Shown one piece after another: positions 1,169 to 40,553 of a stretch of 40,553 nucleotides of DNA. The notes under the pieces are model-generated. The model did no database searches. It was not told where the DNA came from and was given only the letters and a program-made list of their open reading frames with translations. Each line of letters starts with the position of its first letter. The first letter of the stretch is position 1. The translations under genes were made by a program, and so were the position numbers. This DNA is from Seison nebaliae (taxonomy: Eukaryota), in the NCBI GenBank assembly GCA_023231475.1, contig JALJEE010000638.1, positions 1 to 40,553 on the forward strand, given 5' to 3'.

Positions 1169-2000
1169 ATGGTTTTTATTAATATTTTTCTTTTCATAAA
1201 AATTATTATATGTGTTCAATCATATGAACATAATTTCACTAATTTTAAACCGATCGGTAAACTTTTCGAAAGTAGTATTAGAACCAATAGTTCTCCTTAA
1301 CAATTCTTTTTATGAAAACAACTAATTTCTATAGGAACTCCTCTAACTTATTATCCCAAATTTACAAACGGAAAAGATCTTGCATTGATTGTGGGTGGAA
1401 TTCTTCTCGTCATTTTTGGCGCATATGCAATTTCCCAGATACTATCTACACGTTCTTTAAGTTCTTAAATTTTCTTCTTCTCACTAATTTACTTATTTCA
1501 AACAAGAACGTATGCGTGAATCGGAAGTTGTCAGAATGAAAAAAACTCATAATTTTCTAAAAATGGCCGGACAGAATGTATATGACGAAGAAAGTACTTA
1601 CAGTGATAATTCCATAGGAAAGTCATATCGAACCTTTAACACAAAAGAAAAATCTCTAAGAGATTTAAAACCAGTGAAATCTTATCATACACCCAATATT
1701 CCCCATCGGACAGAAAGAGATCGAAGAGAAACAAGATCATATCGAACAAATAATTCCCGTCACAAATCTCAAAGAGACGTAAAACCATCAAACTCAAAAC
1801 GGACAACTAGTACTAAACATAGATCGCAAACACGAGAAGAACCTATAAAATCACATCGAACAACTAGTTCAAAATATAAATTGCGAAATGAACAAGAACA
1901 AACACGATCAAATCGAATGGATAATAGTAGATATAGGTCGGAAAGGAATTTCAGTCGAACAAAATCTCGAGTTGAATTTGAAGATAATTTTAGTATTTAA
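1169..2000 (+). CDS. Orphan type I membrane protein: signal peptide, short ectodomain, one TM helix, basic Arg/Ser-rich repeat tail
   Basis: Three exons (1169-1289, 1335-1460, 1507-2000) joined by GTT..AG introns of 45 and 46 nt keep the frame. Translation: MVFINIFLFIKIIICVQS-YEHNFTNFKPIGKLFESSIRTNRTPLTYYPKFTNGKD-LALIVGGILLVIFGAYAISQIL-STRSLKRMRESE...KSRVEFEDNFSI*. Confidence 0.7.
1620..1961 (+). repeat. Six degenerate 57-bp (19-aa) coding tandem repeats
   Basis: KSYRTFNTKEKSLRDLKPV / KSYHTPNIPHRTERDRRET / RSYRTNNSRHKSQRDVKPS / NSKRTTSTKHRSQTREEPI / KSHRTTSSKYKLRNEQEQT / RSNRMDNSRYRSERNFSRT. Confidence 0.85.
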
Positions 2001-2120
2001 AAAAGCAGAAAATTTATATAAATTATGAATAATTAAAAATAGAATATAGTATGGAAAAAATAAATGGAAATGAAATAGATTTTCATTCGACTTCTTTTTA
2101 CAAACAACTCCCACTTCAAA

Positions 2121-3243
2121 TCACCACGGTCTCCACACACTCTCTTTCATTTTCATCATTTGCTCAATCGTTTCATTTGAAGGAAGCATGTCAGCTTTTA
2201 GACCTAACGATCTTAAAATTAGTTGTGCTTTCTCTTCCAAATTCATTCCATTCATTTGAATACCGTTCTCCGTTTCTACGCAATTTCTTTTCGATGGTGT
2301 AACAAAAGCTGTGACTTTATCATCAGAAAATTCATTCGAACAATTTCGTTTCCTTTTAAATGTGTTAGTCGAATTTGTTGATGATTGGGAGATATTCTGA
2401 CCATCAGGTGATGAACAATATCCGGATGATGGTGGACCAACAGATGTATTTGATAAATCTTCTTTCTTTACCGTTTCCATCATTGGAGACGATAAATCAG
2501 GTTTTGACGTATCTTCTGTAGAAATTGCACAAACTTTTGATTGTAGTTGAGCATTGATTAGAATGTCTTTCAATTTCTCTTGTAATTCATATTGTGGTAT
2601 TTCCATTTGACTGTTATTCGTTTCAAACGATTTTAATAATAAACTTGTTGTCGATGAGATAAGGGAAGCTTTTTGTCTCGCTTCTTCATTGATCATTTGA
2701 CTCTTCTTTAAATATTCGACGGTCATTTCTAAAATTTCCGCTTTCTCCAACTTCTGATATCTCGCACGTTCATCTGATACTGCCATTAATTCTTTCAACT
2801 CATCTAAACATCGATTGATACGATCTCGTCTCTTCTTTTCTACACATGTCTTTGCAATCTTAATTAACGATAGAATAGAAAAAAGATGAAAAAAGGAGAA
2901 TAAACTTTTCTTGAAATTATTGCTGAATGATTTCGGTTCGCAAACATATCTCTTGTCATCTCAATTTTCAATGGAATCGACTTGTTCGTTTTCTTCCCAA
3001 ACATCTCTTGAGCTCTCAACAAATTCTCGTTACTTCTCATCGTCTGTAAACGAGAATTTGTCAAATTCAACATCTTATTCCTGATATCAGAAAGGAGATT
3101 TGCTGGGTCGATATCAGTGACTTGTGGTACTGAAGGAAATGTGTTATTCGAAATCATCTGATGGAAATAAAGTGGGAAATTTTGATTTGAGTGTGAAATA
3201 CAGAAATTATTTGATTGGTTGATATGAATCGAATTTCCGACAT
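2121..3243 (-). CDS. Hes/Hairy-E(spl) family bHLH transcriptional repressor with C-terminal WRPW
   Basis: Splicing intron 2859-2905 (GTTTA..TAAG) gives SRK|IAKTCVEKKRRDRINRCLDELKELM..KLEKAEILEMTVEYLK, and the protein ends SVWRPW*. The start is either 3157 or 3243 (via a possible 44-nt GTATT..CAG intron at 3158-3201). Confidence 0.9.
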
Positions 3244-9407: not shown

Positions 9408-10597
9408 TTATGCAGGATTCACTGAGTTGATTGTACTTGTCTTTGCTTTCAGCGGATGTTGAGGAACGTTCAAAGTGAAATTGTTTACACTTCCATTACT
9501 GTCGGTTGTGGAGCCGGAGCCCGTATCGATTTCTTTATCAAGAATTCTCGTCCGATGCATCACCAAGTCTTTGTTTGCATCTTCAATTATATTGACATCT
9601 CCTAAAGTTACTTCACGAAATGTCTGTTTGTCCGTTCTTATCGTATAATTATCCATCGTCATACCATCCGATGGTTTATGTTTATGTCTCCTATACAACG
9701 GAATGTCTAATTCAGTGGAAGATTTAAAGTACTGTTTGAATCTTGACGAGTAGAGGACCACTTGTATCATAATTGCAACATCCACAGAGATTTGGAGGGA
9801 AGAGCAAATCATAAATTGTGTCGGCGATTTCCGAAGAATGAAATATGCAGTTTTGAACAAATCACCTGCCATCCACATCATCACCATCGTTAGACTCATT
9901 CCAGCGGTGCTTTTTCTAGTAAAATTTTGTACAAATTGTGGTAGACCGAGGAGAGCTTCCAAGAAAACGGCAAGAAATCCTGAAAAAACCGTTTTTTATC
10001 AACAAAATGAAGAAATTATTAAAAAAGAAAAATTGAACCTACTAATTCGACGTAAATCCAGAAACCAATCATGACATATGTGGTGGAAGTGATAATGAAG
10101 ATGAGTAGAAAGAAACATTGAATATACGAAGTGAAATCTGTCCATTTCCAAAAATTATTCACTTCCATATCTGGAATAAAAATGAAGTTTTTTTCAATGA
10201 AATTTAAATATTTAAATTAATTTTTAAAAATTAAACCTAAAAAATATTTCTTCTGTTCATTCTCATTGATAACGAAACGACAATGTGTATGGACGAGAAC
10301 GAACATTCCACTTATCAGTACGAAACTTTGCATAAGAAGAGGCAGTTCGAATCGATGACCGAACCTGTACCAGAAATGAAAATAATTTTAGAAATGATCT
10401 CAATCACCTAACCAGAAATTCACTCGGAGAATTGATGCGATGATTAAAACGAGACAAACGTAAAGAGAAAATCCGTTTTTATCATCGCCAGTTTTATGAT
10501 GATTTCTCATAAGTAAGAATTGAGGAATGAATGGAATGATGCCTCCAAACGTCATCATACAAGAGGCGATGAATGTGAATATGTTGAGGTGTAGCAT
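9408..10597 (-). CDS. SLC66A2: PQ-loop repeat membrane protein (SLC66A2/PQLC1-like)
   Basis: Four exons and three GTT..AG introns. FGGIIPFIPQF..GFSLYVCLVLIIASILRVNFW|FGHRFELPLLMQS; second PQ repeat EALLGLPQFVQNFTRKSTAGMSLTMVMMWMAGDLFKTAYF. Confidence 0.9.
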
Positions 10598-11213
10598 GGT
10601 TCAACGAATTTTCATTTCATAATTCATGGGAGATCATAATGGAATAGAAGAATAGATAGGCCAATGGTTGGATCGGTGAGAATTGTCGATCGATTCGAGT
10701 TATTAGATAATCACAACCATAGATATGAGTATACAGCAGAAATAAAGATGAATGAATGACTAATAAGATGTCATATAATTTAATTCGTTCGAAATTTATA
10801 TCAATAAATTTTCGAGTGAAAAATCGAATAGCAAATTTATACAATGTCTTTCTACAACACATTCCCCCCTTCTACAAATCGATCATTCAAATCATTTTTC
10901 TATTCTCAACAAACTTCATGTCTTTTAAAATCACAAGCTCATTTTTCCATTAGCATCTTCTCGCGACTTCATCACATTAAATGAAATTTAATTCAAACGC
11001 ATGTCTTGATCAAATGACATGAACCATTTGTAAACAATCACTTCCTAAATTTCTCTTACATCATCTCCTCTTCTCTCTTACTCTCTAATGAAATAACTTT
11101 TCAAAATTTTTTATGAATAAAAAATCCTTTTCATTTTATTTGTTTGATTACAAGATAAGATCATTTCTTTCCCCTCCATTTTCTTGCTCTCTTTCTAATT
11201 GCCCTCGATTTGT

Positions 11214-12697
11214 CTAGTCATGAAAATTCAATTTCTTTCGACCTTTAAAAACCCATTTTTATCACTTACACAATAAATAACTTTCCACTAAACTTTTCAA
11301 AGACATATTCTTTTTCGATGTCAATTTATCGCTCATTGATTGATCCTCTAATTTTTCTGTTAATGATTTTGGTAAAGGTAATTCAGATGATGGACAGGGA
11401 GGTGGTCGATTGATAAAAAATGGTGATTTCAACGCCTAAATTAATTTGAATTTTGAAATATTTTCAAAAAATTCATTTAACTTCTGTGGTCGTAATCCGT
11501 TTAGCGGGATTGAGCATCATCATTTCTGATAATAACATCAGCAGATCTTCGGAAGCTGCCGTAAATATTTGATTGAGAGGAACTGGTTCACGTGGATGAG
11601 GTTCTATATATCCACTTAATGATTTGACATTCTTCAAATGAGAATGATAAAAAACTTGAAAAAAAAAATCTGACTGGCCAGTTGTCCGTATTGGGAGTTC
11701 CGAAAACATTAAATATTTTCGATAATTGTTCAAGTTCGTTAGCGCCTGGCAAAAATGGATTCTTAAAGAATTTTCTTAAGAATTTTGAATTTGATAATTT
11801 ATGAGAAATATAACTCGCAACAATAATTCTGCCAAAATGCATCCCACACTCCACATATCCACACCAGTTCCATAGAATCTGGCACCATAAATTAATTCTG
11901 GTGGTCGATACCATCTGTAAAAAAAAATTATTTCTTAAAAAAAATTCAATAAATTTAATAACATTGTAATGACTTGGGGAGTCATTTGTCGATTGGGTGT
12001 TCCGAATCGTTTGGCTAAACCAAAATCTCCAATTCTCAAATTGCCTTCTGAACTAATTAATAAATTGTTGGGCTTAAGATCTCGATGGAGGAGACCGTTA
12101 GCATGAATGAACTCCAAACCACGTAACAACATCATCATATATGATTTGATGATGGAGAGTGTCATTGGAATAGATAAATCTCGAATGACATGTGATAAAT
12201 CGCCGATCATAAATTCGAAAACGAGATTGATCAATTTCGATCGATTGACATAAACATCGATTAACTGAAAGAAAATGAAGTAAATGATAAAAAGAGAAAA
12301 TGAGGAACGTTGAGAATATGATCATGTTCAATTTCACGAAGTAGTTTTATTTCACGTAATGCCGTTAAATCTATTCCATTAATCCAATCTGATCGATCAG
12401 TCACTTTTAACTGGAATTTAATCGATAAAATTCAAAAAAAAATTTTATTATTCACTTGTTTTATGGCAACTTCTTTAGTTTTGATTAAGTCAAGTGCCTT
12501 ATAAACAACAGCGTATTGACCTTCACCTAAAAATTTCAATTTTTTGTATCTTCCTTTCTCCGCGAAATGTTCATTCGTCTGAACAGCAGTTGGAATGGAA
12601 AATATTCATTAAGAAACATTAGTCTGTTAAATTTAACATTTTCTTCATTCTCCTCCATAAATTTCTCCATTTTTTCCATTTCAACATCTTCTCCCAT
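11214..12697 (-). CDS. CDK7: Cyclin-dependent kinase 7 (CAK/TFIIH kinase)
   Basis: Nine exons reconstructed: [96 protein letters not shown]-terminus RKKLNFHD*. The first and last exons are less certain. Confidence 0.88.
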
Positions 12698-13179
12698 TTT
12701 CCTCTCCGAATGAACAAAATAGAATATAAAGAAATTGAAAAATCTTCCAAATAGAGAAAGTTGGAATAGAAATATTTTACAAAGAAGTTTTGAATATTGG
12801 GAGGAAAGAGAATGTAAAAAGAAGTTCTTATTTTTCCAAAAATATTTATTAACAACTTATTTTTGGAGAATGGAAATTGTGTAAAATTTTAATTAAAAAA
12901 AAAATTTCGTAAAATTTTTAATGAAAAAATAATTCCATAAAATTTTTAATAAAATTACAAAGTAAAATGGCAATACGCTGGGGAAAGGAATATTGGAAAG
13001 AGAGAGAGAGAGGGGAGAGTGATAGATGTCTGATTCGCAAATTAATGAAATTTAGTGAAAACTAATTTTTTAAGTTTAACAAAAAATATTCGATGTGATT
13101 TGGGGGAATTTACAAAAAGAAAGTTACTCTCTTCTTAAAAAAAATTCGGAATTTCATAGTAGTAAAATGAGGAATAGAT

Positions 13180-14958
13180 TCAAATGACTGTTTCTAAAAG
13201 AATGGATGAGGAATGATTAGTTGTAATATCTTCATTGCTACTTAATATATCGCTACTTTCGAATAAGCTTGTAGTACAAGCACCACTGCTCTCGCTCAGA
13301 TGTGGATAGTGACCACTTTGATTAAGTCTCATGTTGTCCTCATATTCTTCGTAATGGTGACTATGATGGTGGTTCGGATGGTTTTGTTGATTGGAATTTT
13401 TTAGATGATGTCCATGATGTGTTTGATGTTGAGAATGTGGATTGGAATAATCTTGATGAAAAAGATGATTGCTACTTCGATGGAGATGTGTTGTGGAATT
13501 TGAACAATCATATGATTTGGATACAACCGAATTATATTTGCTGAGATATTGAAATATATTAATTTGTTGAATTCTTTCCAAATCGAATGATGCCGTTTTC
13601 ATAAATGATGTATATCTTAATTGAGATAAGTTTTTTATTCTTCTTGTTGGATTTCTTGATAATAGTCTCGTTATACAACTATTCGCTTCTACTCCATATT
13701 TCAATGGAAGTTCTATTCGATTTTTTATCAGTTTTTCAGCCATCGTCATTCGATTAGTACATCCGTTAATCGGATATTTACCAACGACTAAAGCATACAT
13801 TAAAATACCTAACGACCACCAATCAACACAATGGTCGTACGGTTGAACTTGAAGGATTTCTGGTGCCATATATTGGAGAGTGCCACAAACAGTTGTTGTA
13901 TAATTGCCAATTGGGAGATATTTTGATAAACCGAAATCCACAATTTTTAAATGTCCACGTTTCGATAATAAAATATTTTCCATTTTCACATCTCGATAAA
14001 GAATTCCACGACGATGGAGAAATTCTAATACGAGAGAAACTTCGACTAAATAAATTTTGATGATTTCTAATGGAATTTGTCCTCGCATCTTTGACCATAA
14101 TGCCAACAATTCACCATTGGGGACATATTCGCTAACGATATAAAGGAAACGTTTTGATTGCCAGAATGAATGGACAGGTACGACTAGAGTGGGTAATGAT
14201 TGACCAATTTCATTTTGAATTAACGCCTCGTCTTTGACTTGTTGGACGGCGAGATCGGACATGATTTGTTGTTTCGACATAATTTTCATTGCGTAGACAA
14301 TATCAGTTTCATTGAAGCTAACTTTGAGAACATTACCGAAAGCACCGTTAGCTATGATATCGAGAACGGTGAAATCGCCTTCAGTTATCGGGCCTTTGAT
14401 AGAGAATTCAGGATGGAATAATGCTTCGTGTAATGACACTGGATAATTAATAGTTGCTTCTTTGAGACTTTTAGATCGTGTGTCATTGACATTCTGTTGG
14501 AGTAGAAGTCGCTTCCTCCAATTCGATCTTTCTTTCTCCTCGTAATTATTCCGTCGATATTGAGTATTTGATGGAATTTCATGTCGTTTTCTACGATCGA
14601 ATATCGACAATTCTAAATCACCGTCTTCATCATCATCGTCGTCGTCACCATTCGAATGATTTTTGAAGGAAAGATGCCGATAGATGTTGGAGAGAAACTT
14701 TCTGATTCGTAAACCATCGTCGATGGAATCGGGAGTGGTTGTGGAAGGAAGACGTCCGCTAATCCGACGACGACTTAATTGTCGTTTGGAAAGTTGTTGA
14801 GGGAAGGCAGCAGAATGTTTAATTTGTTCCAATTGCATTTTCCATCGATCATGCTTACTCCCGTTCGTCACATTAGGAACTATAGGCGACGATGTCGTAT
14901 AAGAATAAGTTAAATTGATATTGGGAGAATCGGTTTGATAATTCGATGATTTAGTCAT
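13180..14958 (-). CDS. RSKR: AGC Ser/Thr kinase, ribosomal S6 kinase-related (RSKR/SgK494-like), single exon, His-rich tail
   Basis: 592-aa ORF with IIANGAFGNVLKV, YAMK, YRDVKMENILL, DFGLSK, CGTLQYMAPE and VDWWSLG. DVKMEN and GTLQYMAPE are typical of the SgK494 group. Confidence 0.85.
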   Translation of the reverse strand: MTKSSNYQTDSPNINLTYSYTTSSPIVPNVTNGSKHDRWKMQLEQIKHSAAFPQQLSKRQLSRRRISGRLPSTTTPDSIDDGLRIRKFLSNIYRHLSFKNHSNGDDDDDDEDGDLELSIFDRRKRHEIPSNTQYRRNNYEEKERSNWRKRLLLQQNVNDTRSKSLKEATINYPVSLHEALFHPEFSIKGPITEGDFTVLDIIANGAFGNVLKVSFNETDIVYAMKIMSKQQIMSDLAVQQVKDEALIQNEIGQSLPTLVVPVHSFWQSKRFLYIVSEYVPNGELLALWSKMRGQIPLEIIKIYLVEVSLVLEFLHRRGILYRDVKMENILLSKRGHLKIVDFGLSKYLPIGNYTTTVCGTLQYMAPEILQVQPYDHCVDWWSLGILMYALVVGKYPINGCTNRMTMAEKLIKNRIELPLKYGVEANSCITRLLSRNPTRRIKNLSQLRYTSFMKTASFDLERIQQINIFQYLSKYNSVVSKSYDCSNSTTHLHRSSNHLFHQDYSNPHSQHQTHHGHHLKNSNQQNHPNHHHSHHYEEYEDNMRLNQSGHYPHLSESSGACTTSLFESSDILSSNEDITTNHSSSILLETVI

Positions 14959-15264
14959 TATCGTTTTCTAATTCATTCAATCGTACCATCCGCCTCGCAA
15001 TTCCTTATTCGATATAATTATTCATTTCATCTTCTTTCTCACATTAAACAAATCTTCCTTCTTCTCAACAATCACTTGTTTTCTTCCTCTACGAACAAAT
15101 GAATAGACAAGAAGATAATTCAATAAAAAATAAAGTTGTTTTCCTTCAAATCAATCGCCAATTATACGAGTAAAGAACGAATATTTCCAAATTCGAATGA
15201 GAAAACGGATTATTTTTTACCTATCATTCAATCATTCTTTGCCTTGATATGGTAAACAACAGAA

Positions 15265-15294
15265 AATAATAATAATAATAATAATAATAATAAT
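15265..15294. repeat. (AAT)10 microsatellite
   Basis: Direct reading of the sequence. Confidence 0.95.
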
Positions 15295-17024
15295 TATCAG
15301 AATGGGAATAAAAGGACATTTGAAGTAAAATATAATTGAAATCGATCAGAAATTATTGACGATACATGAAAGAATAGTCAACTGAAGAATAAAAAGGGAA
15401 ATTGCAGGAACGAAATGGAATCTCTCGCAAACAATTGAAGGGAAAAAAACTTTCATTTCTTCCTTCCTTCCCCTCACTCAAGCGGTATGCTACTAGACGA
15501 TATTTGTTATATGCTTCTCTATGTCTCTGCTGATCGTATTAGGCATAAGAAAATAATATTGGTAATACTACAACGACTAACAGTTGTAGTAGTAGTAGTA
15601 GTAGTCGTCGTATATGATGGAAATCGATGTAAATAGAGAAGGCGAATTTCGTTAGAGATATGTCTACATGGCAATCGTGTTGCAGAGCCGAGAAGAATTC
15701 TAATGATTGAAGTTCGATGAAAAGACAAAAAAAAATTTTTTGGATGTTGTTGATGAATCGTAATTTGATTAGCCTTCTATAATAACATGCAGTCTATCCA
15801 TCCATCCCATCCATCATATTAGATAGATTTTATCTGTTACCCCCTCCAACCCAGCATCTCGGAGAGGTAATGCAATAATATTAGCATTACCAGCCAATCT
15901 TCCAATTCCTACGTTTGCATATTAGATGATGTGTGTGAGGATTGAGCTAAAGGAAATTTCATAAATCTACTTTCTCACTTAATTTCAACAGTCATTCGTT
16001 TACTTACATGAATGTGCAGTTGTACATTCTTATCTTATCCATCCTCTTCTTCCTCCTCCCCCTAACTTTTCACATCCAATTACTGCTCCATAAACAACAA
16101 GAGAATCATTAAGGTTATCCAACTCCCACATGAAACTATCAATACGTGTGAATTTATAAACATGAACTTTGATAGATAAATTCCGACTGAAGTGACGTGA
16201 ATGAATTTGAAGGAATTCCATTACCAATTCATCATTTCCATTTGTCGCCAAACAAATATTTGAACTCTAATCAAATATATTCTCCTCGTTATTATTATCA
16301 GTTTCAATCAATGTTCCATTGTCATCTACCTCAAAGATTGTAAAAACATATTTACCTTCTAAAAAATAATCCCCCGAACTTACAGAGATTATTTGAAATA
16401 ATGTGCTACAAAAAAATAGTTTAATTTCTATTCAAAAACTCTCATTGTTCGAAGGTGGAGAAGAATTACTTTAAAATAAACATTGAAAGCAATTTAAAAG
16501 AATTGGAGGGAGCAGACTTTCCATCAAATCATATTCATATAATTGTAAGTTGCACCTTGATTCTCATAATCTTTTGTTTATCACATGAATTCTTTTTTGA
16601 AAGTCCCTCCTTTTTTTCCCAAATACATATCAAATACTTTCAAATGTACATATATATATATTTAAGCTTTTATTGTCTTCTTGTTGACTACAAGAGAACC
16701 TAGCTTAAAATATGATTGCTCAACTATAGACTAGAATGCTGCTAAGTCCTCCCAACAAACCGTCCTAACTACAAGAAATTATTGTTCGAATTTTAATTTC
16801 CTTCATAAATTCATCAATTTCCCGTCTGCTAATCATACACATGGACTTATTAGGTAATTATTCATTTATCCGAATAATAGAAATGGAACATCTTTAATTA
16901 AATTGTACTTGATCTCTATTACAATTTCTCTTCCCACTCTTTTACCGAACATTGTCGAAAGAATCGAATATCAGAAACTTCAAATGATTTTAAAAAATTT
17001 TTTAAATAATTCAAATATTGAGCT

Positions 17025-17541
17025 ATGGTTGCATATGAACTGCTATTGGTACTCCGTTCGTCCGGAAGAGTTTGTCTTTTATAATAGCGGAATTATAATT
17101 TTTTCAGACGAAATTGGTGGAGACTATTAAAAGATGTTCATTAAAAATTGATGGAATCATTCGTTCATTCAATAATTTGGGAGAACGTGATCTCCATCAA
17201 CCAACTCGAAAACATGATGAAACTTTCTATTCAGGCCAGTTCGTTTCCTTCTCTAATTCCATATCAAATTTCTTTTCAGTTATTTTCTCATTACTTATTC
17301 CGCTCCACCAAAATTTAATAAGAATTTGATTGATGGCATGAATCGAGATAAGGATGTCATTCGTTCCACTATCGTCAATGTACCCGAGAAATTTCTGAAA
17401 GTTCCGCCAAACGCCATTTTAGATGTTGATTGTGAATGTGAAGAAAATAACAAATTTATTGACGATCCAATCGATGTCTATCGGAAGTACAATCGCGACG
17501 AAAAGAGACGTCTATACAAAGATTTCGGTGTTCGCTTATAA
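17025..17541 (+). CDS. MRPS6: Mitochondrial ribosomal protein S6 (bS6m)
   Basis: Introns 17070-17107 and 17239-17279 (GTT..CAG). MVAYELLLVLRSSGR|TKLVETIKR..GIIRSFNNLGERDL..GH YFLITYSAP..MNRDKDVIRSTIV matches the bS6 YEL / NLGER.L / RD.DVIR motifs. Confidence 0.88.
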
Positions 17542-17903
17542 AAAATTTCCTGATATTCTCTTACAGATAATTTTCATTTGTTATAATAAAAACTTTCATT
17601 TTTTTGGAAACTTTTAAAATTTTTTGAAACTATCAAAATTAATTTTCTTTTTTCTTTTTTAATTGACAGTTCATTGTGAGTTTAGTTCAATAAAATTATA
17701 ATAAAATTATTATCTTATTTTCTTTCTAAATTCACCCCGAGGAGGTTTGATCTTATAATAAATAATAATAATAATAATAAAATAAAAAATTCTATAAATT
17801 AATTTAGAAATTGAATTGAGGAAGAATGAAAACATTTGATAAGAATTCTTTATTTGGATATAAGAGAATTTTATTAAATAAAAAAATTTAGATGACAAAA
17901 AAA

Positions 17904-19671
17904 TCAAATTGAATCATGACGTCGACGTTGGAGTCGTTTCTTTTTTAGTTCGTTCCATTGTTGAGTTTTTTGTTCGTAAGTGAATAGATTGTATAAATCG
18001 AAATTGGTTAAATTGGAAGTTTGAATATCTTTCAGATGAGACGTCCTTAAAGAATTGAGGAGAGACACAGATCCAGGTAAGTTCTTGTGTTCAATAGCGA
18101 CAGCCACCGGATGGATTGTTGAACATTCGACATCGACATCTTTCGATTTGCAGTCGTTCGGTTGTAAGAGAAGTGAATGACTGAGATAATATTTGGAATC
18201 ATTTGAAGAAATTAAATTAACAATTGGCATTTTCTTCATGAAGAATAATTGTTGTGTCATCATTGATGATTGTCGAGATGCAGCGTTCTCTGCACCCACA
18301 TCAATATGGACATCATGTTTATAAAAGTGTCGATAATCAGTTGTTAGATAACAAGGAGTATAACTATCACCGAAACTGCGAACGACTTCCTTCTTTATTT
18401 GACTTGAGTCATCGTCTCGATTTTGTGATGAATTTTTTAATTGTCGCCGATTCTTCACATCGTTCACATTGGATGGCACACAATTGGCACAACAACATCT
18501 ATTGAGAATACTTTTCTGTGATTTGGAGAATTGGAAACGGAAACACGATTGATATTCACAAGAACAAACGGAAACTAGATCCTCTTCTTCCGGTTTCTCT
18601 TCTTTGTCTTTGATGACAATTCGAGTGTTCTCACTAATCACATCTCCTTTCACTGTGACTTGTTGTCGAATAGCTTCTTCTAATTGTAACTTCTCTTTTC
18701 GTTCTTCTTCCGTATTAATAGAGACTAATTTCAAAACTAATAAATTTATACTGGAAGCACCAAATGTGAGAACTGATACGATGAAGAGAACGGTAAACGC
18801 ATAATAAGCTGGTGATCGATTTAACATCTCCTTCTTTTGCATCGGCACATAATCACCAAAACCGATTGTGGTCAAAGTAATGAAACAATAATAAACAGCT
18901 TCGAAATAACTCCAATTCTCTTTATAATGAAATATGGCGGCGGCTGAAAAAACGGTAAACATACTCAGACAAAATTCTGCGAGAATAATTTCCATTTGAG
19001 TAATTTGTTGAGTTTTCGCTTTCATTTTCAATTGAATCAATTTCTCCGATTGTTCCAATGATGTTTTAGTTAGATGTCCGAAACGTTTCTGCTCGTTTTT
19101 GACATGTCTCTTCAATTGATAATATTGATAAGAATAATATTTCTGTTTCGTTACCATCATAATATGTGCGAGAAATGTATTTATACGTTCACCGACACTC
19201 TGGAACATAATGATGGAAATTGGAATTCCAACAATCGCATAAATAATCGTAAATATTTTACCACTAAATGTGACGGGTGTCGAATGACCATAACCTGAGA
19301 ATATTCAAAAATAAATTTTAAAAAAAATTCAAAAATAAATTTAAAAAAAAACCTATTAATGATGTGACGATGAGACAATAGAAGAAAGCGCCGGGAAATT
19401 GCCATTGGGAACCGGCCATCATTTTCTTCTTTCGCCAGAATGTGTTGATTAGTTGTTGCATATCATTTTCAGTGACATTATATTTCTCTTTGATTTGTTT
19501 CGTTACGTTTTTATAACGATTATAATCTGATTGTTCGCGACTCGATTCCAATCGATCAAAAACGGCGGCACCAATTAACAGATAAGTGAAAGTACAAATT
19601 ATGAGGGAGAGTGTCCTTATATTTTGCCGTTTTATGGAAATGTTGTCGTTCAACTTATCGCGCGTCGTCAT
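17904..19671 (-). CDS. Two-pore-domain potassium channel, TASK subfamily (KCNK3/9, sup-9-like)
   Basis: KRQNIRTLSLIICTFTYLLIGAAVFDRLE. One intron at 19295-19352. P1 is SLIG|YGH, P2 is YYCFITLTTIGFGDYVP, and the C-terminus RRRHDSI resembles the TASK 14-3-3 motif. Confidence 0.92.
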
Positions 19672-25735: not shown

Positions 25736-27250
25736 ATTTCCACTATTGATGAATAGTTGCGTCCAAACCGAAATATAATAAATTTGATATGAATATCAAT
25801 CATATAATATGTTTTCCACTGATACGTAGTGTAATTGTGCTCAAATATAGAAATCTATATATTTGTTATTTATCGTAAAACGGTAATCTACTTGACGAAA
25901 ACGATTGTTAGATCAGCAATGCCTTCATAACAAATTTCTATTTATTCACTGGAACCTTTTCAAGGATAATGTCCATGAACGAAATTCAACTCACAGAGTC
26001 CATGAGAGGAAGCCTATTTGAAAATTTATTATTATTTTCCGTCTGATTATTTTCTCTGTTATTGTTCTGCCTTCCCGTCCGTCCAGTGATTGGACTGCAC
26101 TCTGTACACTGCGTATTATCCGAATACGGCTTATTCCCAATTGCAAATGTAAACTAGTTCTTCTTTATTAACTTCTCTAATGAATTAACGGGCTCCATTT
26201 CCGGTGAATAATCAACACTCAACTGTACTACTAGAAGATGGAACTGTCAAATTTGATTCCCGCCCATTCTTTTATACATTTATCATTTCTCAAGAGATTC
26301 TCATTTAATTTTTATTCAAAAAAAAAACAAATTTCAAGTGTGTATTTGACCATGCTTTGACTGCTCTTAATATGACTGACTAAAAGAGAAAAATTAGATT
26401 TCCTTCAAAAACATCGATACATAATTGACATTGAGAGACGGACAACAATTTAGACGATACAAATCCAAATTCACTCGGAGAAAGAACTCAAAAGAATTTT
26501 TCAGTTAAATTCCTTCCAAAACTTTAAATATAATAAATGTTCTCCTCTTTAAAAAAAAGAGTATTTAAATATTATTATATGAAGACTATTCTTAAATTGT
26601 ACAAATATATCCTTAATAAATTTTAGTTATTTAATGAGGAAAAATATTCAAATATTTATGAACAACAATAATAACGAGAAGTGGATTGCATAATAATCAT
26701 TTTGTTTGATTAGTGTTGTACTTGTTGTTGTTGTTTTAATATGGTTTCTTGATATTTCCAATTATAAACTAGAGAATGTTCAAGAATAAAAGTGATTATA
26801 ATTATTAGTTTCTTAAATGTTTGAATGAGAGTGAACTGGATTTAGAAGTAAAACGAAACAAGATTTGTCATTCGAATATTTATATACAGTTCACTCGCTA
26901 AAGTAGAAGTAGAAGAAAAAGAAAATTTTTTGGTTCATATAATTTCTTTCTGTTCAAAAGTTTGTCGTTTGAAACTAAAACAAAATTTAAGAAATTCTAT
27001 TTGGTGAATTTGTCGAAATGAAATTAGGAGAATTATCGGAACTTATTCATTTAATCATCAGCCGAAAGTTAGAACACTTAATAATTTCCTAATCTGATTA
27101 TATGGAGTTTTGGAGAGAGAATTAAATAAAATATTAATAATAATATTCTTTCTTTTTTGAGAATGACGTAAAACCAAACAAAAAACGGGAATATTCAACT
27201 TTCATTGTGTTGTAGATTATCGGATTAGAGTTTAATGATCTTCATCTAAC

Positions 27251-28117
27251 ATGGTAGTGAATCGACTTAACACATCTTCATTTACCAACAACAATCACAA
27301 AATGATGTTATCGAGACGAGTCAACAATACGACTAGTGGGGTGGTTAAGCCAAGATCTGACTCGAGCAATATTCGATTATTGAAAAATTGCCGATTCTTC
27401 GGTTTCGAACTACATCCCTTAAATTATCTCAATTTTCGAACCGATGACGGAAATTGTCTATTTTATGCGGTCGCCTTTTGGATTGTTCGATTGGGGAAAA
27501 GTCAAGAAAGAATAAAAGAACATTTTGTTCGTTTATTTAATCAACATTTCAGTCAAGATTATACTTTTGATCAAACATTCTTCTGCAACAACTGTCTATC
27601 TTCACAACTCATCCAATTGAATCATATGTTACGGCAACTTTGTGTGAATGAATGGGAAAAGAATCAATCTGTATATATTCCTTATTTCTCTACAACACAA
27701 GAAAAAACTGAAGAGAAAAGAATAAGCTTATTCAACAAAGAAATTCATAAATTCCTCCACAACACACACTACAACTCCCAATTTGGTGATTTGGTTCCTC
27801 ATACAATTTGCAACATTTTCGGAATTAACATTCTCATTTTTACTTCTAACAAAGTTCGTCCTCTACAATTCCTTCAACCATCAACTGCAGCCAGTTCCAA
27901 CATGACCATTTGTCTCGGATATAACCAACAACATACCGGTCATTACGATGTGGTTCTCCCATTGGACAATGTCAGTGTAAACGGAACTGAACCGATTAAA
28001 GGAATGCATCTCACGAATAATCTGAATCATATGAATGTGGACGAGCAATTGAGAAATTATAAAATGTATAAAGAGAATCATTCGAAATCAAAAGTTTATC
28101 GTCCTGTCCATAATTGA
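27251..28117 (+). CDS. OTU-like cysteine protease (deubiquitinase family), single exon
   Basis: DDGNCLFYAVA (Cys codon 27455), FGDLVP..ICNIFGINILIF, LGYNQQHTGHYDVV (His codon 27941). Confidence 0.82.
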   Translation: MVVNRLNTSSFTNNNHKMMLSRRVNNTTSGVVKPRSDSSNIRLLKNCRFFGFELHPLNYLNFRTDDGNCLFYAVAFWIVRLGKSQERIKEHFVRLFNQHFSQDYTFDQTFFCNNCLSSQLIQLNHMLRQLCVNEWEKNQSVYIPYFSTTQEKTEEKRISLFNKEIHKFLHNTHYNSQFGDLVPHTICNIFGINILIFTSNKVRPLQFLQPSTAASSNMTICLGYNQQHTGHYDVVLPLDNVSVNGTEPIKGMHLTNNLNHMNVDEQLRNYKMYKENHSKSKVYRPVHN

Positions 28118-31351: not shown

Positions 31352-33207
31352 ATGGAATTAGAAGGGAAGATAAACAAAGGATATCAGAATGATGATCTTA
31401 CGGCCGATGATGAGAAAGAGAAGGTTGAACGAGCGGCGGTTGAAGGAACAAAAGTAGATTTACAGAAATCCATCGGATTATTCAGTGGGACATGTATCAT
31501 TGTGGGATTGATGATAGGTTAATAATTTATCTAAAAATTTTTCGTTGAAAAACGGTTAGATTTCAGGTTCCGGTATCTTCGTTTCTCCAACGGGAATTGT
31601 GAAACATGCACAATCTGTTGGACTGTCAATTGTGATGTGGTTGGTCTGTGGATTGATTTCTTTGTTGGGTTGACTATTTGAATTTCACAATAATTTCATC
31701 ATCTTCTGTAACAGGTGCGCTATGTTATGCGGAATTAGGAACACAAATTCAGGAGAGTGGTTGCGAATATACATATCTTCATTATGCATTTGTTAACGAG
31801 AATCAAAGTAGTAAGAAAGCGAAATTAAGTTATAAGAATTATTTAAATTAAATACTCATAATTTCTGTTCTGATAAATTTGTATTAGGTTCAATTCCTGC
31901 ATTCTTATTTCATTGGGTGGCCATGTTTATATTGAAAACGTCAAGTGCCGCTATCATCTCTTTGGCATTCGGGAAATATTTCCTTACGATGTTTAAGGAT
32001 TCAAGTAAATATGAAGAGTTTCATCTAGATAAATTATTGGCGATACTTTTGATGAGTTTATAAAAGAATTTTATTCAACTTTCACTTTAATCCAGTTCTT
32101 CTGACAATCGTCAATAGTGTCAGTGTGAAGATAGCGACGTACGTGCAAAATGTGACAACAATTATAAAAATTGTAGCGGTCGCTATAATAATTATTACTG
32201 GTTTTGTATTGTTAGGTCAAGGAAAAACAGAAATTTTACAAACTGGTTTCACTAATTCAACTTCGAACGGTTGGAAATTGTCTTTGGCATTGTACAACGG
32301 AATGTGGGCTTATGATGGATGGAACAATTTGAATTTTGTAACTGGAGAAATTATTAATCCGGAAAGAAATCTTCCATTAGCCATTTTCATCGCTATTCCT
32401 CTAGTAACGATCGTGTATGTTCTGATCAGTATTTCTTATTTCACTCTATTGACACCAATGGAAATAATGAGTTCAAACACTGCGGCTGCCGATTGGGCTG
32501 CGAACATTTTCACATCCAAATTCAGTTGGGTTATGCCACTTTTCATCTGCGTTTCTACAATGGGCGCATGTAACGGAAGCATGTTTAGTGCCGCCAGGTT
32601 TCCAATTTCGCTAAACAGTTGAAATTATTATATAAAAAACTTTCATTTAAGATTACCATATGCTGGGGCAAAAAATGGCCATATGATCAGTCTGTTGGGA
32701 ATGGTCCATATTAAATGGTTAACACCATTGCCCGCGGTAATATTTCAGGTTATTATTTCAATGAGTTTTTTGAAGCCACTTAAATTATACGTAGTCAACA
32801 ATCAGTTGTATAATGGTAATTCCAAGTAATTTGAGTGATATGATCGATTTCTTCAATTTTTGCGCATGGATGTTTTATGGTTTAACTTTCTTCAGTATCA
32901 TATGGATGAGGTACACTAAACCAGATGATATTCGTCCGTTTAAAGTTCCAATTTTAAGTTTATCATTAAACTTATTTGTTAGGTCCCAATCATTCTACCA
33001 ATAATCGGTGTTATGATCAGTGTTTATCTGATTATTGCTCCAATTGTTTATGAACCGAAAATTGGATATTTGGTGGCTTTTATTATTATGATCAGTGGAC
33101 TACTCTTGTATGTTCCATTCGTCCTATATGAAATGAGAATGCCATATATGGATAAGATTACATATGTTCTTCAAATCTTCCTCAATGTTTCAGCACCAAC
33201 ATCATAA
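31352..33207 (+). CDS. SLC7 L-type/b(0,+)-like amino acid transporter, paralog 1
   Basis: Eight exons and seven GTT..AG introns. [71 protein letters not shown]. Closest in motif pattern to SLC7A9. Confidence 0.92.
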
Positions 33208-33693: not shown

Positions 33694-35511
33694 ATGGAAA
33701 AGATTGAAAATAAGTTAGAAGGAGAAAAAATTCTTCAAAAGGATTTAGTTAATTATGGTACTTCAACAGAACCGGTCGAATTGGAGAGGAGTATTGGATT
33801 ACTATCAGCGATCAGTATTGTCTTGGGAATTATCGTAGGTTTAATAATTCATTCAGCGATATAATTAAATGATGTTAAGGTACCGGAATATTCATTCAAC
33901 CAGCAGGTGTTGTACAATATTCGGGTTCTGTTGGTGAGTCATTAATAATATGGTTTCTATGTGGCATATTCTCCCTTGTCGGTTTAATATCTTTTGATAT
34001 ATAAATTGAATAATAGATAGTACCTGTTTTAGGTGCTCTTTGTTATGTTGAATTGGGAACGCAGATAAATGAAAGTGGATCCGAATATATTTATTTACAT
34101 CATGCATTCGTTGAAGGGGACCAGTCGGTAACTCAAAACAAATGGGGTTAGTTCGATTAGATATATGAGAGATTTGTAAAATAAGAGATTAGCCCGATTT
34201 CCCGCATTCCTCTATCAATGGGTTGCTATTCTCATAGCCAAACCGTCTTTTGTTGGTGTTGTTGCTATGGTGTTTGGAGAATATTTCATACAACTATTCA
34301 CTACTCGAAAGATGATTTGGATAACAAAATTAATTGCAATAATTTTAATATGTTAATAATATTAATGAATAATTTAATGATAGAATATTCTGGTGTAGCT
34401 CTTCTCACTCTCATTAATAGTGTAAGTATGAAATTAGTTGAACATTTTCAGAATATCACAACAATTATAAAAATGTTTGCCGTTCTTACTGTTATTATTG
34501 GTGGTGGTGTACTAATAATAAAAGGTCACACTGAAATTCTCCAAAGTGGATTTACCAATTCCACCATGGACGGTTTGCAACTTTCTGTGGCACTATCAAA
34601 TGGTTTGTGGGCGTATGATGGTTGGAATAATCTAAATATGATAGTAGGTGAATTAAAAGAGCCACAACGTACTTTACCTATCGCCCTAATCATTGGTTTG
34701 CCCATAGTGATACTGATCTTCATGTTAATGAATGTTTCATATTTCACTTTGTTTACACCGTCGGAAATAATGAAGTTAGATATCATTGGAGTGGCATGGG
34801 CTAATAAAATATTGGGTGAAAAGATGGGATGGTTGATGCCTCTATTCATCTGCATTTCAGCAATCGGTTCATGTAACGCAACTATTTTGGGAAATTCCAG
34901 GTTTCTACTTTTTTTTCAATTGAATGAACAGAATATAAATCATAATTTGTAGAATTGTATATATCAGTGCCACAAAAGGCGACATGATAAGTCTATTTGG
35001 AATGATCCATGTCAAATTCCGTACACCATTACCAGCAATCATTCTCCAGGTTAATATCGAAATATCTTCTCACATAACTGATTGTCATTTCCAGAGTTCC
35101 ATTACCGTTCTTATGATACTGCTAACTGATTTAAATGATATGATTCAATTAGCTATGTTTACAATGTGGATATTTTATGGATTAACTTTCTTCTGTATCA
35201 TATGGATGCGTTGGACGAAACCAGAAGAAACACGACCTTTTAAAGTTTGTAGTTTATTTTGAATTAGTTCAATTTTCGATTTACAGATACCTCTCATTCT
35301 TCCAATAATTGCGGTCTTCTTCAGTATTTTTATAGTTGGGGGACCTCTAATTTACAATCCCAACGTCAGTCATTTAATCAGCATATTGATCATGTTGAGT
35401 AGTCTCACAGCATTTATTCCATTCATCATTTGGGAAAAACGAATTTCTTGTTTCGAAAAAGTGACAAATATCTTAAAAAATTTATTCCAATTGGAGTTTC
35501 CACATAGTTAA
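33694..35511 (+). CDS. SLC7 L-type/b(0,+)-like amino acid transporter, paralog 2 (more divergent)
   Basis: Same seven intron positions as paralog 1. [48 protein letters not shown]; ends QLEFPHS*. Confidence 0.9.
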
Positions 35512-35768: not shown

Positions 35769-37307
35769 TCAAGAAATCAAACTATCATCCTTATACATTA
35801 TCTGGTTGTTGATCTTTCCTAAAATTTTACGTGTTTCAATTACTTTATTCTTTTCGTTGAGAACAACTGTATAAAGTTTTCGATATGAAAAATATGAAAA
35901 ATATAATTTTAAATCTTCCACCGCAAAAACGAAATCATTATCTAATATATACCATGCATCTCCAATTAAATTCTTCACTAAAGCGTACGAATGTCCATAA
36001 GAATTGCAAATTTCGTGCACACTCGATAGAAGATCAGATGTTAGATCATTGATCAATTCCATCATAGCGTCCTTCTTCAACTTATTTAATCGTCTGATTT
36101 TTATTTCTAACATAAAATATTTAATGAAACTATTAACATAGCCATTTTTAACGTCATCGTCAATTTGATATGGTCTCTTTTGTGTACTAAAACCGGCAGC
36201 AGCTGGTGATAATCCGATTCCCGATATTTCGTAGAGAATTTCAGGAAATTGTGGTAATCTAACAGCTGAATCAATATCGATATTTGGATGCATTGTAATA
36301 GATTTAGCTAGAATTTGGAATTTTGGTCGATTTATTGGCGGAACATAACTATCAAAATCCATTTTTATATCGAACAAATTCGAATTGATAAATGTTCGCA
36401 AATTCGCTACATCCGAATTATGAATTCCCATTTCTAAATAATTCGTGTAGACTTCATAGAATTGCATTACAATAATCGATGGTGTTATTGTCAAATTGAT
36501 TAGTGTAGATTTGAAATCAGATAAATCAGAAATGTTCTCTATATATGTGACGGGAGATAGATCATCGAGAAATTGGTAAGTGAAAGAAATATAAGCGAGA
36601 TCGAACAATTCTGAATAAGAATCGAAGTCATTCTCATTCATAGGGATCGTTCTGCTACATCTTTCACTTCTATTACAAATGAAATCAGTTTGATCGATAA
36701 TTTTATGGAAAAACTGGTGAATAATATTATTTTCATTAGTTGATGCTGCCATTATGGAATTCCACGAATTGAATTTCGTAATATTTGTTTTATGCGGAAT
36801 TGGAAGTGGATCTTCTATTTTTTCATTAAATCTTAACGAAGTCTCTAATAAATGTGGATTAGCATGTGTTATACTTCTCAAATTATGAAAAGAATATGCG
36901 CCTTCTGGTTTCGTACAATTCTCATAATGATCATGAATAAGACTCGTTGATTGGAGCATTGAATGTACCAGGAAATATCCTTCGTTATATTTAGAGACGA
37001 GTGAACTGACATCAATAATCGAACCATTCTTCACAACAATCTCATCGACCGCCTGATGGATTGCTGAAAGACGTTTACAAAAATTTTCATCGATCTTCAC
37101 CTTCTCATACAAAATGTTCATGATCAATGGAGATGATTGCAACAGAAATTGTCCAACTAAACTCAAACAGATATTATCTTTATTAAGTCCCCCATTTGGT
37201 ACGTAGAATCTATTTTGGGATTTTGCAAATTTCATTTTAAAATATAAACTGTTCCCACAATCCATATAATCACTATGACTAATTATGTTAAACAAAGTAA
37301 GATTCAT
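35769..37307 (-). CDS. Single-exon 512-aa protein, possibly a highly divergent ubiquitin-specific protease (peptidase C19)
   Basis: Long clean ORF. N-terminal PNGGLNKDNICLSLVGQFLL resembles a USP Cys box, and C-terminal SYGHSYALVKN..AWYILDNDFV resembles the His/Asp box. The CDS call is confident; the family call is tentative. Confidence 0.6.
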   Translation of the reverse strand: MNLTLFNIISHSDYMDCGNSLYFKMKFAKSQNRFYVPNGGLNKDNICLSLVGQFLLQSSPLIMNILYEKVKIDENFCKRLSAIHQAVDEIVVKNGSIIDVSSLVSKYNEGYFLVHSMLQSTSLIHDHYENCTKPEGAYSFHNLRSITHANPHLLETSLRFNEKIEDPLPIPHKTNITKFNSWNSIMAASTNENNIIHQFFHKIIDQTDFICNRSERCSRTIPMNENDFDSYSELFDLAYISFTYQFLDDLSPVTYIENISDLSDFKSTLINLTITPSIIVMQFYEVYTNYLEMGIHNSDVANLRTFINSNLFDIKMDFDSYVPPINRPKFQILAKSITMHPNIDIDSAVRLPQFPEILYEISGIGLSPAAAGFSTQKRPYQIDDDVKNGYVNSFIKYFMLEIKIRRLNKLKKDAMMELINDLTSDLLSSVHEICNSYGHSYALVKNLIGDAWYILDNDFVFAVEDLKLYFSYFSYRKLYTVVLNEKNKVIETRKILGKINNQIMYKDDSLIS

Positions 37308-37612
37308 GACTTACTTTTTTCTACAACAATAAACCAACAAATTTTTTCCTAAAATTTTGATTTACCAAACAAAGAAACAGTAAACAAATTGAAAAAAAAC
37401 CGAAATAATATAGTTCTTTTATTTTATCTAATGGAAGAGAACTAAATACATATCAGAATTGAACAAACTCCACAACTCTCATTTTAAATGAAATATTTGA
37501 ATATTTCTTTTCGAGAAAAGATCTCAATTTCAAATAGAAAAAACTTTCCTGTAATAGTTTTTGGAAAAATTTCGAATAATCAATAATTTATTTTTCTGAT
37601 AGATATAATTTC

Positions 37613-38581
37613 TTATAAAGTTCTTTGAATTTCCTGTTTGACCCTTCGAATCATTTTTGGATTATTGTCATCGCCCAAATTAGTGACAACACTCACTTCA
37701 CATCTGAAGGAAACATATCCGTCAGCGAATTTAAAACCGTCAAATTTCATTTGAATCTCATTTTTATTAAAACCATCATCTTTCTCAAAATTTATAACGC
37801 CCCCAAACTCTCTAAATTGGAATAAAATTTGAAATTTTCAAAGAAATTCAACTTCAGATTTTTAAAATCTTCATCGCTTTCATACGTATCCGGTGCGGCC
37901 AAACATTCTGCTTCACATTTTAACTTCTCACATGTATCTGAATGAAAATTAATTGAAATTTCACAACTGTAAAGGACAAACCTCCTAATAAAATTTGTTC
38001 AACATTTAAAGTGATGACCATTCGATCACCAACGAGAATTTTATTCGCCACTTCCTCTCCACCTTCTTTTTTTATAGTCATATCGATCTGAAAAACAACT
38101 TTGTCCTCTTTGTTGATGAAACTTTCGTCGTTAATTCTACAGAAGAAATAAATTTAGTAGATTTTTTTGTTAAATGATTTTCTACCTGACATTTTCCGTC
38201 TTCTCAATTTCACCAAAACCATCCTTACACATGATTTTGAAGGATAAATTTTTCGATTGGATTTCATGATAGAAGTAAATATAAGCCACTTTCGTAGTAC
38301 CCTTTGAAGCAGCATCAACACATTTTTCTTCGGGCACTATTACCTCACCTTCTACTACTATTCCTTGACTGCATGACGTGGCTTCAGCGTCACCTGGTGT
38401 AAAATGATAATTGTATCCTTTTAGATCATCACTGGGAACAATTTTCATTTCCTGGTCACATATTACAGAAACATTCTTCGTTTTCTTCTCAGCTGACAAT
38501 CGATATTTAATAAGAACAAAATAAAAAAGAACCGTTAACAAAAAAAACTATAAGAATAAAAAGGAAGATTAATCTTGCCAT
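37613..38581 (-). CDS. Secreted ZP (zona pellucida)-domain-like protein, paralog A
   Basis: Five exons. Signal peptide MARLIFLFILIVFFVNA; four-Cys N-terminal module (VICDQ, TSCSQ, EKCVD, IMCKD); ILVGDRMVITL; FDGFKFADGYVSFRCEV; basic MIRRVKQ near the end; no TM helix. Confidence 0.7.
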
Positions 38582-39580
38582 TCTCTTTAAACAAAACCGA
38601 CAAATGTCAAAATAACCGGTTTAAATCATCATTTAATATCACTGCATATTTATAATATTTATTTAGCTGGAGGTTTTTTGCTTATTCAGCTTGTTCTGTT
38701 CCCTTCAAACTAAAATTTTTTTAAGTCCTCATAAAAGATAAATTGGAAAAAAGACAAACATGACCACCAAAAGGACGTGAAGAAGATGATTCGCTTTCTT
38801 TTTTTTTCTTAATTATTTAATGAACTTAATTAATTTTATCGATAAATTATTCTATTATTGAATGAATTAAGTTCAAAGAATTAACGGTTTTATTATCATT
38901 GAGTAGTCGTAATCATAATGTGACGATTAGGCACAATAAGTCGTAACATATGTGGAAGATTTGAAATAACGTCCATCTATTTATCATATCAATAAATTTT
39001 ATACAGAAATTAGAACTCCCTTTTCATAGAGTCCGATTAACAACCAAAAAAGTCCACATTGGTTACACTATGAGTTATATTTATTGGAAGTTTTCCACTC
39101 GTTTTATGTCGTTTTTAGCTGAATTGTTTCGTTGAACTTTTATTATAGTACGTTTAATATTTCAATAGAATATTAAGAATACTATTTCATATAATAGATT
39201 CTATTCGGTAATAGAACATATTATTAGTCTTTTATTCAGTCAAAAATTCTATCAAACATTCATATTGTTTGGGAATGTTCTTTATTAAAAAAATGCAGTT
39301 ATCAATCACAGAAATATTGGAGAAACTGGTCAATTTGTTAACATACCATATCATCAATTTATATCATTACATAATATAATCAATATATTAATATATGTAA
39401 TTAAAAGATTTTTCATTTTAAATTTAATGACAAATTTTCTGAATTTATGGTAAATGTAAATTGTCAATGAGAAATGAACAATATGAAGATTATACTTTCT
39501 TCAAAAAAATATTCTTCTTCAAATATTCATATTGTATTAGATCGCGTTGAAATAACAATCTTGGTTTATAATCGGGGTTG

Positions 39581-40553
39581 TTATAATACCTTTTGTACTG
39601 TTTGTTTAATTCTTCGTACGTTTTTTGGGCTTACTCTTGTACCTTCAACGTCCTTAGCTGGGAGATCCACCTCACATTTAAATACGCTATTTTGATCAGG
39701 AAACTTAAAACCGTCAAATCTCATTGTTATTTTATTTTCGTCGAAATTTTCGTCTTCTTCATAATTTATAGCATCATACTCACTAAATTGGAATAAACGG
39801 GTAGTATTAAAATTTTTTATATTTAGATAATTAAATGACTGATAACCTTAATTTTTTATAATCATCTTCGTTAACATTTCCAAGATCTTTCTCTGCACTT
39901 ATAGGAGCTACCATACATACTGCTCCGCACTCTAACTTTTCACATGACTCTAATAATGTAAATGGTTAATATTAAAATTAATTTCAAAACAAACTCTTTA
40001 ATACATTTTCGTCCACAGTTAAAGTTATTTGCATGCGGTCGCCAACCATAATTGCCTCATCTCCTGCACGTTCTGAAGCACTTTCAGAAATCTTAGAAAT
40101 TGTCATTTCTATTTTAAAGTCAACTTTGGTTTCCACTTTATCATAAATCTCATCCGCAACTCTTAACGTAAGGAAAATTTGAAGAATTAATGATAAATGA
40201 TGTCACTTTATATCTGAGTACTTGTCAACAGTTCCAAATCCATTTTTACATGTTACTTTGAAAGATAGCTCTTTCGTTTGTATTATTTGTTTTTCGTAAA
40301 AATAAACATGTGCCACTTTGCTGTTCTCCTTACCATCAGTAATACAGTTTACGTCCACAATAATCTTACCATCATTTACCGGTGAATCTTTGCCCTTACA
40401 TATATTTGTTGTATCATTTTGTTTCACAAATTGAAAACCAAGACCTTTAAGTTCTCCTGTTGGGGTAAGTGTCATGTTCTGATTACAAGTTACATTAACA
40501 CCGTACTTCGGTTCCTCACCTGTCAATAGTCAATTAAATCAAATTTGAAAATG
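39581..40553 (-). CDS. Secreted ZP-domain-like protein, paralog B (first exon lies beyond the window end)
   Basis: Colinear with paralog A and with the same intron positions: VTCNQ..ICKG..NCIT..LSFKVTCKNGFG, IMVGDRMQITL, SCEKLECGAVC, FDGFKFPDQNSVFKCEV, VRRIKQTVQKVL*. Confidence 0.7.

Follow-up and report, generated by a model that had tools for sequence, protein, structure and literature searches.

A GTT donor code in the introns of a Seison nebaliae contig

Contig JALJEE010000638.1 of the Seison nebaliae assembly GCA_023231475.1 (40,553 nucleotides, hereafter the window) contains 13 intron-bearing genes whose 54 introns mostly share an uncommon 5' splice site (donor). Seison is a tiny marine rotifer relative, classified in the Rotifera, Seisonacea. 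The introns start with GTT in 48 cases (Wilson 95% interval 78-95%), with GTA in three, GTG in two and GTC in one, and no donor is GTRAG (0/54). A first-pass annotation of the same DNA had claimed that nearly all introns begin with GTT and none with GTRAG, and both statements hold; its six examples (17070 GTTTG, 17239 GTTCG, 31518 GTTAA, 2905(-) GTTTA, 19352(-) GTTTT and 25202(-) GTTTG) all lie where it placed them. Intron density is about 3 per kb of coding sequence (54 over 5,730 modelled codons), and three further long frames in the window have no introns. Homologue searches with single exons identify public S. nebaliae proteins on this DNA for GMPR, two SLC7 transporters, CDK7 and SLC66A2, and Pfam backs the Hes-type HLH, PQ-loop, K2P, UPF0193 and BAG6 assignments, with ribosomal S6 weakly matched.

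The five public proteins map exactly to the window and yield 30 introns with one GT..AG placement each (27 GTT, 1 GTA, 1 GTG and 1 GTC). On the minus strand, the SLC66A2/PQ-loop gene (P0361) has GTT introns at 10412-10365, 10236-10171 and 10038-9980 and an in-frame GTA intron at 9732-9691; CDK7 (P0241) has GTT introns at 12637-12579, 12308-12265, 11962-11915, 11814-11762, 11481-11436 and 11293-11243, a GTG intron at 12455-12411 and a GTC intron at 11674-11632; and GMPR (P0001) has four introns, all GTT, at 25648-25606, 25482-25432, 25347-25309 and 25202-25155. On the plus strand, SLC7 paralogue a (P0121; 31518..32982) has seven GTT donors at 31518, 31669, 31829, 32056, 32598, 32749 and 32945, and paralogue b (P0122; 33839..35286) another seven at 33839, 33982, 34147, 34352, 34901, 35050 and 35245. 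Because public models could carry a trained bias, the 26 introns in GMPR, CDK7 and the two SLC7 genes were rebuilt with every in-frame GT/GC..AG alternative up to 45 nt away and rescored with non-Seison profiles; the profiles comprised 73, 91 and 93 proteins (length-filtered from 119, 119 and 118 fetched). Twenty-two of the 26 introns are pinned by at least 6 bits (20 GTT, 1 GTG and 1 GTC), including all of those in GMPR, six of eight in CDK7 and six of seven in each SLC7 paralogue. The remaining four are ambiguous, among them the donor at 34147 in paralogue b and that at 31829 in paralogue a, upstream of which GTAAG/GTAGT score 2.6-3.1 bits higher (GTAAG, 18 nt upstream, by 2.6 bits).

For another 21 introns, in eight genes, the models rest on frame; 18 of them begin with GTT. 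An unnamed membrane-protein gene (1290-1334 and 1461-1506, plus strand, both GTT) is placed by frame only. The Hes-like bHLH gene (2124-3157, minus strand) has one GTT intron (2859..2905), modelled from frame, with the HLH match running from residue 2 of the downstream exon. MRPS6 (plus strand) has two GTT introns in frame (17070-17107 and 17239-17279), and its middle exon gives a match to Ribosomal_S6 (positions 19-58) whose E of 8e-4 falls short of the curated cut-off. The others are on the minus strand. A K2P channel gene has one GTT intron (19295..19352; frame, Ion_trans_2 and a transcript); EVG1/UPF0193 (frame and UPF0193) has GTT introns at 24322-24273, 24209-24153, 24061-24018, 23937-23887 and 23700-23652 and a GTA intron at 23550-23502; and a BAG6-domain gene (PF12057) has five, all GTT, at 29591-29537, 29494-29443, 29366-29317, 29176-29127 and 29063-29001, the first three of them found by transcript only. 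An unnamed gene modelled from frame has GTT introns at 38532-38493, 37981-37938 and 37852-37812 and a GTA intron at 38185-38137, and its tandem paralogue, also modelled from frame, has GTT introns at 39994-39950 and 39846-39783 and a GTG intron at 40206-40162. The modelled introns thus number 51 (45 GTT), and the three transcript-only introns bring the total to 54. A gene finder lacking a donor motif recovered 24 of the 30 public-model junctions in leave-one-out runs, but we do not take it as proof: in its intron background T is slightly preferred after T (0.54), and some of its calls, in Hes, MRPS6, EVG1 and one paralogue, were wrong.

RNA-derived junctions come from assembled transcripts, rather than from reads, in PMC8351084, a study that used directional RNA-seq, genome-guided Trinity assembly and GMAP mapping. 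From its Additional file 2 we parsed 17 distinct spliced isoform alignments of minus-strand genes among the matches listed, with one duplicate and the unspliced and transposon rows excluded. Among these matches there are 36 minus-strand junctions with 35 donors, of which 29 are GTT (interval 67-92%), 3 GTA, 2 GTG and 1 GTC, and each junction has exactly one GT..AG placement. Transcript gaps match 32 of the 33 minus-strand models, the intron at 37981 (-) after a 2-nt slide that leaves the spliced sequence identical; the exception is Hes, with no row among the matches listed. For the plus-strand genes, comparison of 14 block-length patterns with the table likewise gave no row among the matches listed, which does not count as evidence either way. 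Transcripts include all introns of SLC66A2 (four), CDK7 (eight), GMPR (four) and the tandem paralogue (three), and single transcripts span all six of EVG1, all five of the BAG6-domain gene and all four of the unnamed gene. They also add three unmodelled introns, all GTT, and one alternative acceptor. Twenty-two of the 36 junctions cannot slide at all, and since only a single placement is possible their ends are independent of any motif; 18 of these are GTT. The GTT share is 83% in this RNA-only set (among the matches listed), lower than the 89% overall. Junctions at other (GTA/GTG) donors, which the first-pass annotation had named as grounds for rejecting the pattern, are not the rule: the transcript junctions fall at GTT donors. 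DNA contigs of sequencing runs X1 and X2 contain no intron-skipping joint over 10000-19290, and runs X6 and X7 gave no match. We note that GMAP recorded 34 of the 36 junctions (among the matches listed) as deletions and not as introns; its splice model may not recognise Seison donors, or it may handle short gaps in this way in general.

The non-GTT donors are all on the minus strand (12455 GTGAA, 11674 GTCAG, 23550 GTAAA, 38185 GTAGA, 40206 GTGAC and 9732 GTACT), and five of the six have A at -1. The first five had been named in the first-pass annotation and each is transcript-supported, but its tally of five missed GTACT at 9732(-), the 42-nt in-frame intron of SLC66A2, and its count of 36 of 39 GTT introns in conserved genes is corrected to 36 of 40 for the same reason. 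This intron (9691-9732) is stop-free, lies in the last exon, and is spliced in one and retained in two of three spanning isoforms (among the matches listed); its GTA is possibly a weak donor serving as an alternative-splicing switch. The additional acceptor is in CDK7 at 11775 (-), where one isoform uses a 40-nt rather than a 53-nt intron from donor 11814, shifting the frame. The extended donor motif of U12-type (minor) introns, RTATCCT, is absent from all 54 donors.

The GTT pattern is real, selected and, on the minus strand, transcript-supported. T follows GT at 41% of sites in the window (both strands), intron bodies are 48% T, and 36 of the 61 GTs inside introns have T next; the 35 RNA donors exceed these three backgrounds with binomial p values of 5e-7, 2e-5 and 2e-3, so that +3T is above intronic T content, the other comparison that the first-pass annotation had proposed. 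Of the 57 GTs that lie unused 36-70 nt upstream of the introns' acceptors, only 19 are GTT (Fisher p 5e-9), as are 12 of 35 unused GTs at feasible distance in the RNA set (Fisher p 7e-5). Per-site usage can be counted for GTs with a feasible acceptor in the 11.9 kb of spliced transcript spans: GTT is used at 29 of 183 sites, GTA at 3 of 90, GTG at 2 of 86 and GTC at 1 of 63, and GTT differs from GTA and GTG combined (5/176) with p=2e-5. After an exonic AG the figures are 5 of 8 for AG|GTT and 1 of 10 for AG|GTR. Selection of a GT site depends on +3U, and not on a +3 purine or +5G; the lack of any per-site advantage of a +3 purine over +3C supports a donor choice that differs from the animal norm, and to this extent the divergent major spliceosome proposed in the first-pass annotation is partly supported. 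GTT is not avoided in coding sequence in the window, where it is the commonest Val codon (126/347) and xGT before T is not depleted; the sole lean in that direction is sense GTT at 288 vs AAC at 359.

The donor code is short, consisting of -2A, a -1 purine, GT, +3T and an intron length of 38-66 nt (median 48). Over 54 introns, A is found at -2 in 35; A, G and pyrimidine at -1 in 28, 19 and 7; T at +3 in 48; A and T at +4 in 20 and 18; G at +5 in 9; and T at +6 in 26. The first-pass annotation noted that the exonic AG is often missing, and it is complete at only 12 of 54 donors, but the exon side is not free: among 51 introns, -2A occurs in 34 (17.5 expected) and a -1 purine in 45 (27.8 expected). 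It had overlooked this signal together with the narrow length range, although length alone picks the true GT in 43 of 51. Each acceptor has one to four candidate GTs, and in leave-one-out selection of the true one chance gives 31.4 of 51, +3 gives 41, -2/-1 give 44, and these two with length give 48; positions +4 to +6 alone give 36 and leave the combined figure at 48. The earlier view that +4 to +6 are unconstrained thus stands in that they add no information, and the estimate of +5G in about a fifth is borne out (9/54), but +5G is slightly above intron-body G (9/51 vs 7%, p=0.01). No sign was seen that -1G and +5G compensate for each other (Fisher p 0.70, n=51), and GT-T-TGT donors number 4 of 51. 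Acceptors are HAG with a T-rich run, -3 never being G (C20, T21 and A10 of 51), and no fixed branch-point position was found in 51 introns, TRAY motifs lying at varying distances.

It is likely that the splicing machinery has been re-tuned to read a different third intron letter. How is less certain, and our confidence is evenly divided on the specific proposal that the Seison major spliceosome reads U at +3 through a U1 small nuclear RNA (snRNA) predicted to carry A opposite that position. The spliceosome would define the intron across its length, leaving one to four candidate GTs per acceptor; intron definition over such a short, fixed length should need little information, and a short helix from -2 to +3, formed with U1 and then on the exon side with U5 loop 1, could pick among the candidates. 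The usual pairings at +4 to +6, with U1 and then with the U6 ACAGA box, would be dispensable, a trace of +5G remaining. A change in U1 is favoured because Entamoeba, the sole published +3U lineage that we found, has an altered U1, and because the U6 helix leaves little trace here. The per-site preference for GTT over GTR disfavours a canonical U1 arm, since such an arm would favour purines. The average match over nine donor positions is 4.3 for the standard U1 arm and 5.2 for an arm with A opposite +3, a difference true by construction and not a test. An Rfam scan found no snRNA in the window (one chance match, E 0.76), a result that bears on the window only.

Several observations weigh against the U1 proposal. 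Six donors (11%, and 17% of those derived from RNA among the matches listed) are not GTT and yet are spliced, and although GTRAG sites are used in 0 of 15 cases this is not significant against GTT (p=0.13). A single U1 change leaves the loss of +5G unexplained, and likewise the excess of A (28/54) over G (19/54) at -1. Compensation by U1 is also not the rule in other lineages with changed donors: Mastigamoeba has another compensatory U1, but Thecamonas, Mamiellales and 69 yeasts with an atypical +4 retain a standard one (bioRxiv 10.1101/2022.06.08.495308), and in the animal Fritillaria U1, U5 loop 1 and the U6 box are unchanged although most introns are non-canonical (PMC13326754).

A possible though tentative alternative is that U1 is standard, weakened or absent and that +3U is recognised at a later stage, through a G-U wobble with the G of the U6 ACAGA box or by an altered protein pocket (PRP8, U1-C, LUC7 or SNRNP27K), with U5 loop 1 acting on the exon side. 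Roy and Bowser describe +3U as able to add pairing to a standard U6 box (bioRxiv 10.1101/2022.06.08.495308), and the exon bias (-2A, -1 A or G) would fit a U-rich partner such as U5 loop 1. The unchanged Fritillaria snRNAs are in keeping with this, as is splicing without U1 in Cyanidioschyzon (PMC10158995), but the genome for which that loss is reported has 38 introns and is not intron-rich. Mutants of METTL16, SNRNP27K, LUC7 and U4 move donor use towards U5-type sites, but the known shifts affect +4 and the exon rather than +3 (PMC11732430). The Watson-Crick part of the U6 helix (+4 to +6) is almost traceless here, and the +5G expected of a code led by U6 is all but missing (9/54). This reading nevertheless comes close behind the U1 proposal, given the unchanged Fritillaria snRNAs and the lineages with an atypical +4 that retain a standard U1.

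The other explanations that we have weighed are improbable. Ordinary but permissive machinery acting on T-rich introns subject to drift finds some encouragement in the T content of intron bodies, the frequency of T after internal GTs and the success of length alone in picking donors, but we already consider it very unlikely: +3 stands alone, +4 (33% T) and +6 (48% T) resembling the intron body, the decoy GTs lack the GTT excess, and +3A falls to 3 of 54 although A makes up 34% of the introns. Bursts of intron-generating elements are known in other eukaryotes, and one carrying GTT ends would suit the narrow length range. We hold such an origin to be just as improbable, since the 51 introns share no sequence beyond 12-15 nt (the longest such word involving the T-rich K2P intron), all three intron phases occur, and the SLC7 paralogues share all seven intron positions with +3T kept in 7/7 pairs while only about half of the letters in their bodies align; the persistence of +3T after body divergence would be left unexplained. 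An artefact of gene modelling or assembly is scarcely credible, and on the minus strand it is refuted. The 18 introns of the plus strand (all GTT) and Hes rest on frame, homology or public models, two SLC7 donors are ambiguous by homology, and the transcripts are assembled, but the agreement of transcripts with the minus-strand models, the GTT donors of all three unmodelled introns, and the identity of DNA contigs from two runs to the window over 10000-15252 argue against it.

The closest parallel is Entamoeba, in which GT-AG introns with U at +3 are likewise the norm in a major-spliceosome context and U1 is altered to pair with +3 and +4 (bioRxiv 10.1101/2022.06.08.495308). Entamoeba, however, is intron-poor, with a strict six- to seven-letter donor, GUUUGU(U) (97-98.5% GUUUGN), and a constrained branch point, whereas Seison is intron-rich, with little +5G, few GT-T-TGT donors and no fixed branch point. 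Animal U2-type donors fall into a U5 class (AG//GU) and a U6 class (//GURAG), and GURAG accounts for 44% of Caenorhabditis elegans donors (PMC11732430; PMC11347140); the 54 Seison introns have none, and share the GT-AG ends and a U5-class-like -2A/-1G bias but differ from that class in the scarcity of the full exonic AG and in a near-fixed +3T. They have the GT...AG ends of U2-type introns and, on the minus strand, are removed from RNA, and they depart from the GTRAG/+5G consensus. Fritillaria borealis is another animal in which the major spliceosome handles an altered splice code, but 95% of its introns escape GT-AG, with diverse donors and conserved snRNAs (PMC13326754), whereas Seison keeps GT-AG and has one position switched. 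Cyanidioschyzon merolae offers a model for donor choice without U1 pairing. In a scan of metagenome data for a sister-lineage control, a bdelloid CDK7 query found three loci (36-57% identity), and none of them could be recognised as an intron-bearing rotifer gene.

The Seison GTT donor code is apparently undescribed. A literature search, with thin coverage of subscription journals, found no report of Seison donors or of an animal with GTT donors; in the available text, PMC8351084 mentions introns only for gene compactness and its Additional file 1 has no splice, intron or snRNA term, while term searches of the accessible parts of PMC12256650 and PMC10639083 found no intron or splicing term and no mention of Seison, respectively. 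Since +3U already accounts for a sizeable minority of donors in some animals with compact genomes, for example nematodes, the novelty lies in its near-fixation with loss of +5G and not in its mere presence. The pairing of U1 and U6 to GURAGU has been treated as fixed in animals, and transformed donors have been described mainly for intron-poor protists with long, strict signals; Seison is an intron-rich animal with +3 switched and +5G lost. We think it conceivable, at slightly below an even prospect, that such an animal has rewritten its donor code genome-wide into five letters (A, purine|G, U, U) combined with intron length as a ruler, that the snRNA responsible for reading +3 has also changed, and that the near-universal +5G pairing to U1/U6 has been given up. 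It would then be the first animal example of co-evolution between an snRNA and intron donors. Seison lends itself as a natural experiment on the pairing (U1, U5 loop 1 or the U6 box) that splicing cannot do without, and on the way in which thousands of introns may switch code in concert. Splice models that learned from other animals will probably score its genome wrongly.

Several other features of the window are of note. Among the intron-rich genes is a 592-aa protein kinase without introns (13183-14967, minus strand), and a 513-codon frame at 35772-37310 (-), with no Pfam family above threshold, also lacks introns; an unspliced transcript lies over each. The tandem paralogues near the right end (37616-38581 and 39584-40553, minus strand) match no Pfam family but have conserved cysteines; the first has a hydrophobic N-terminus and the second runs past the window end. 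A 292-codon frame at 27239-28114 (+) has weak matches to OTU-like proteases (E 0.001, below cut-off), and a hAT transposase remnant (PF05699) occupies 1-703 (+). Finally, low-depth contigs of run X2 at 15778-16018, 17420-17543 and 18298-18420 are about 10-15% off the window; in coding parts their differences often come at three-base spacing, and they may derive from a second lineage.

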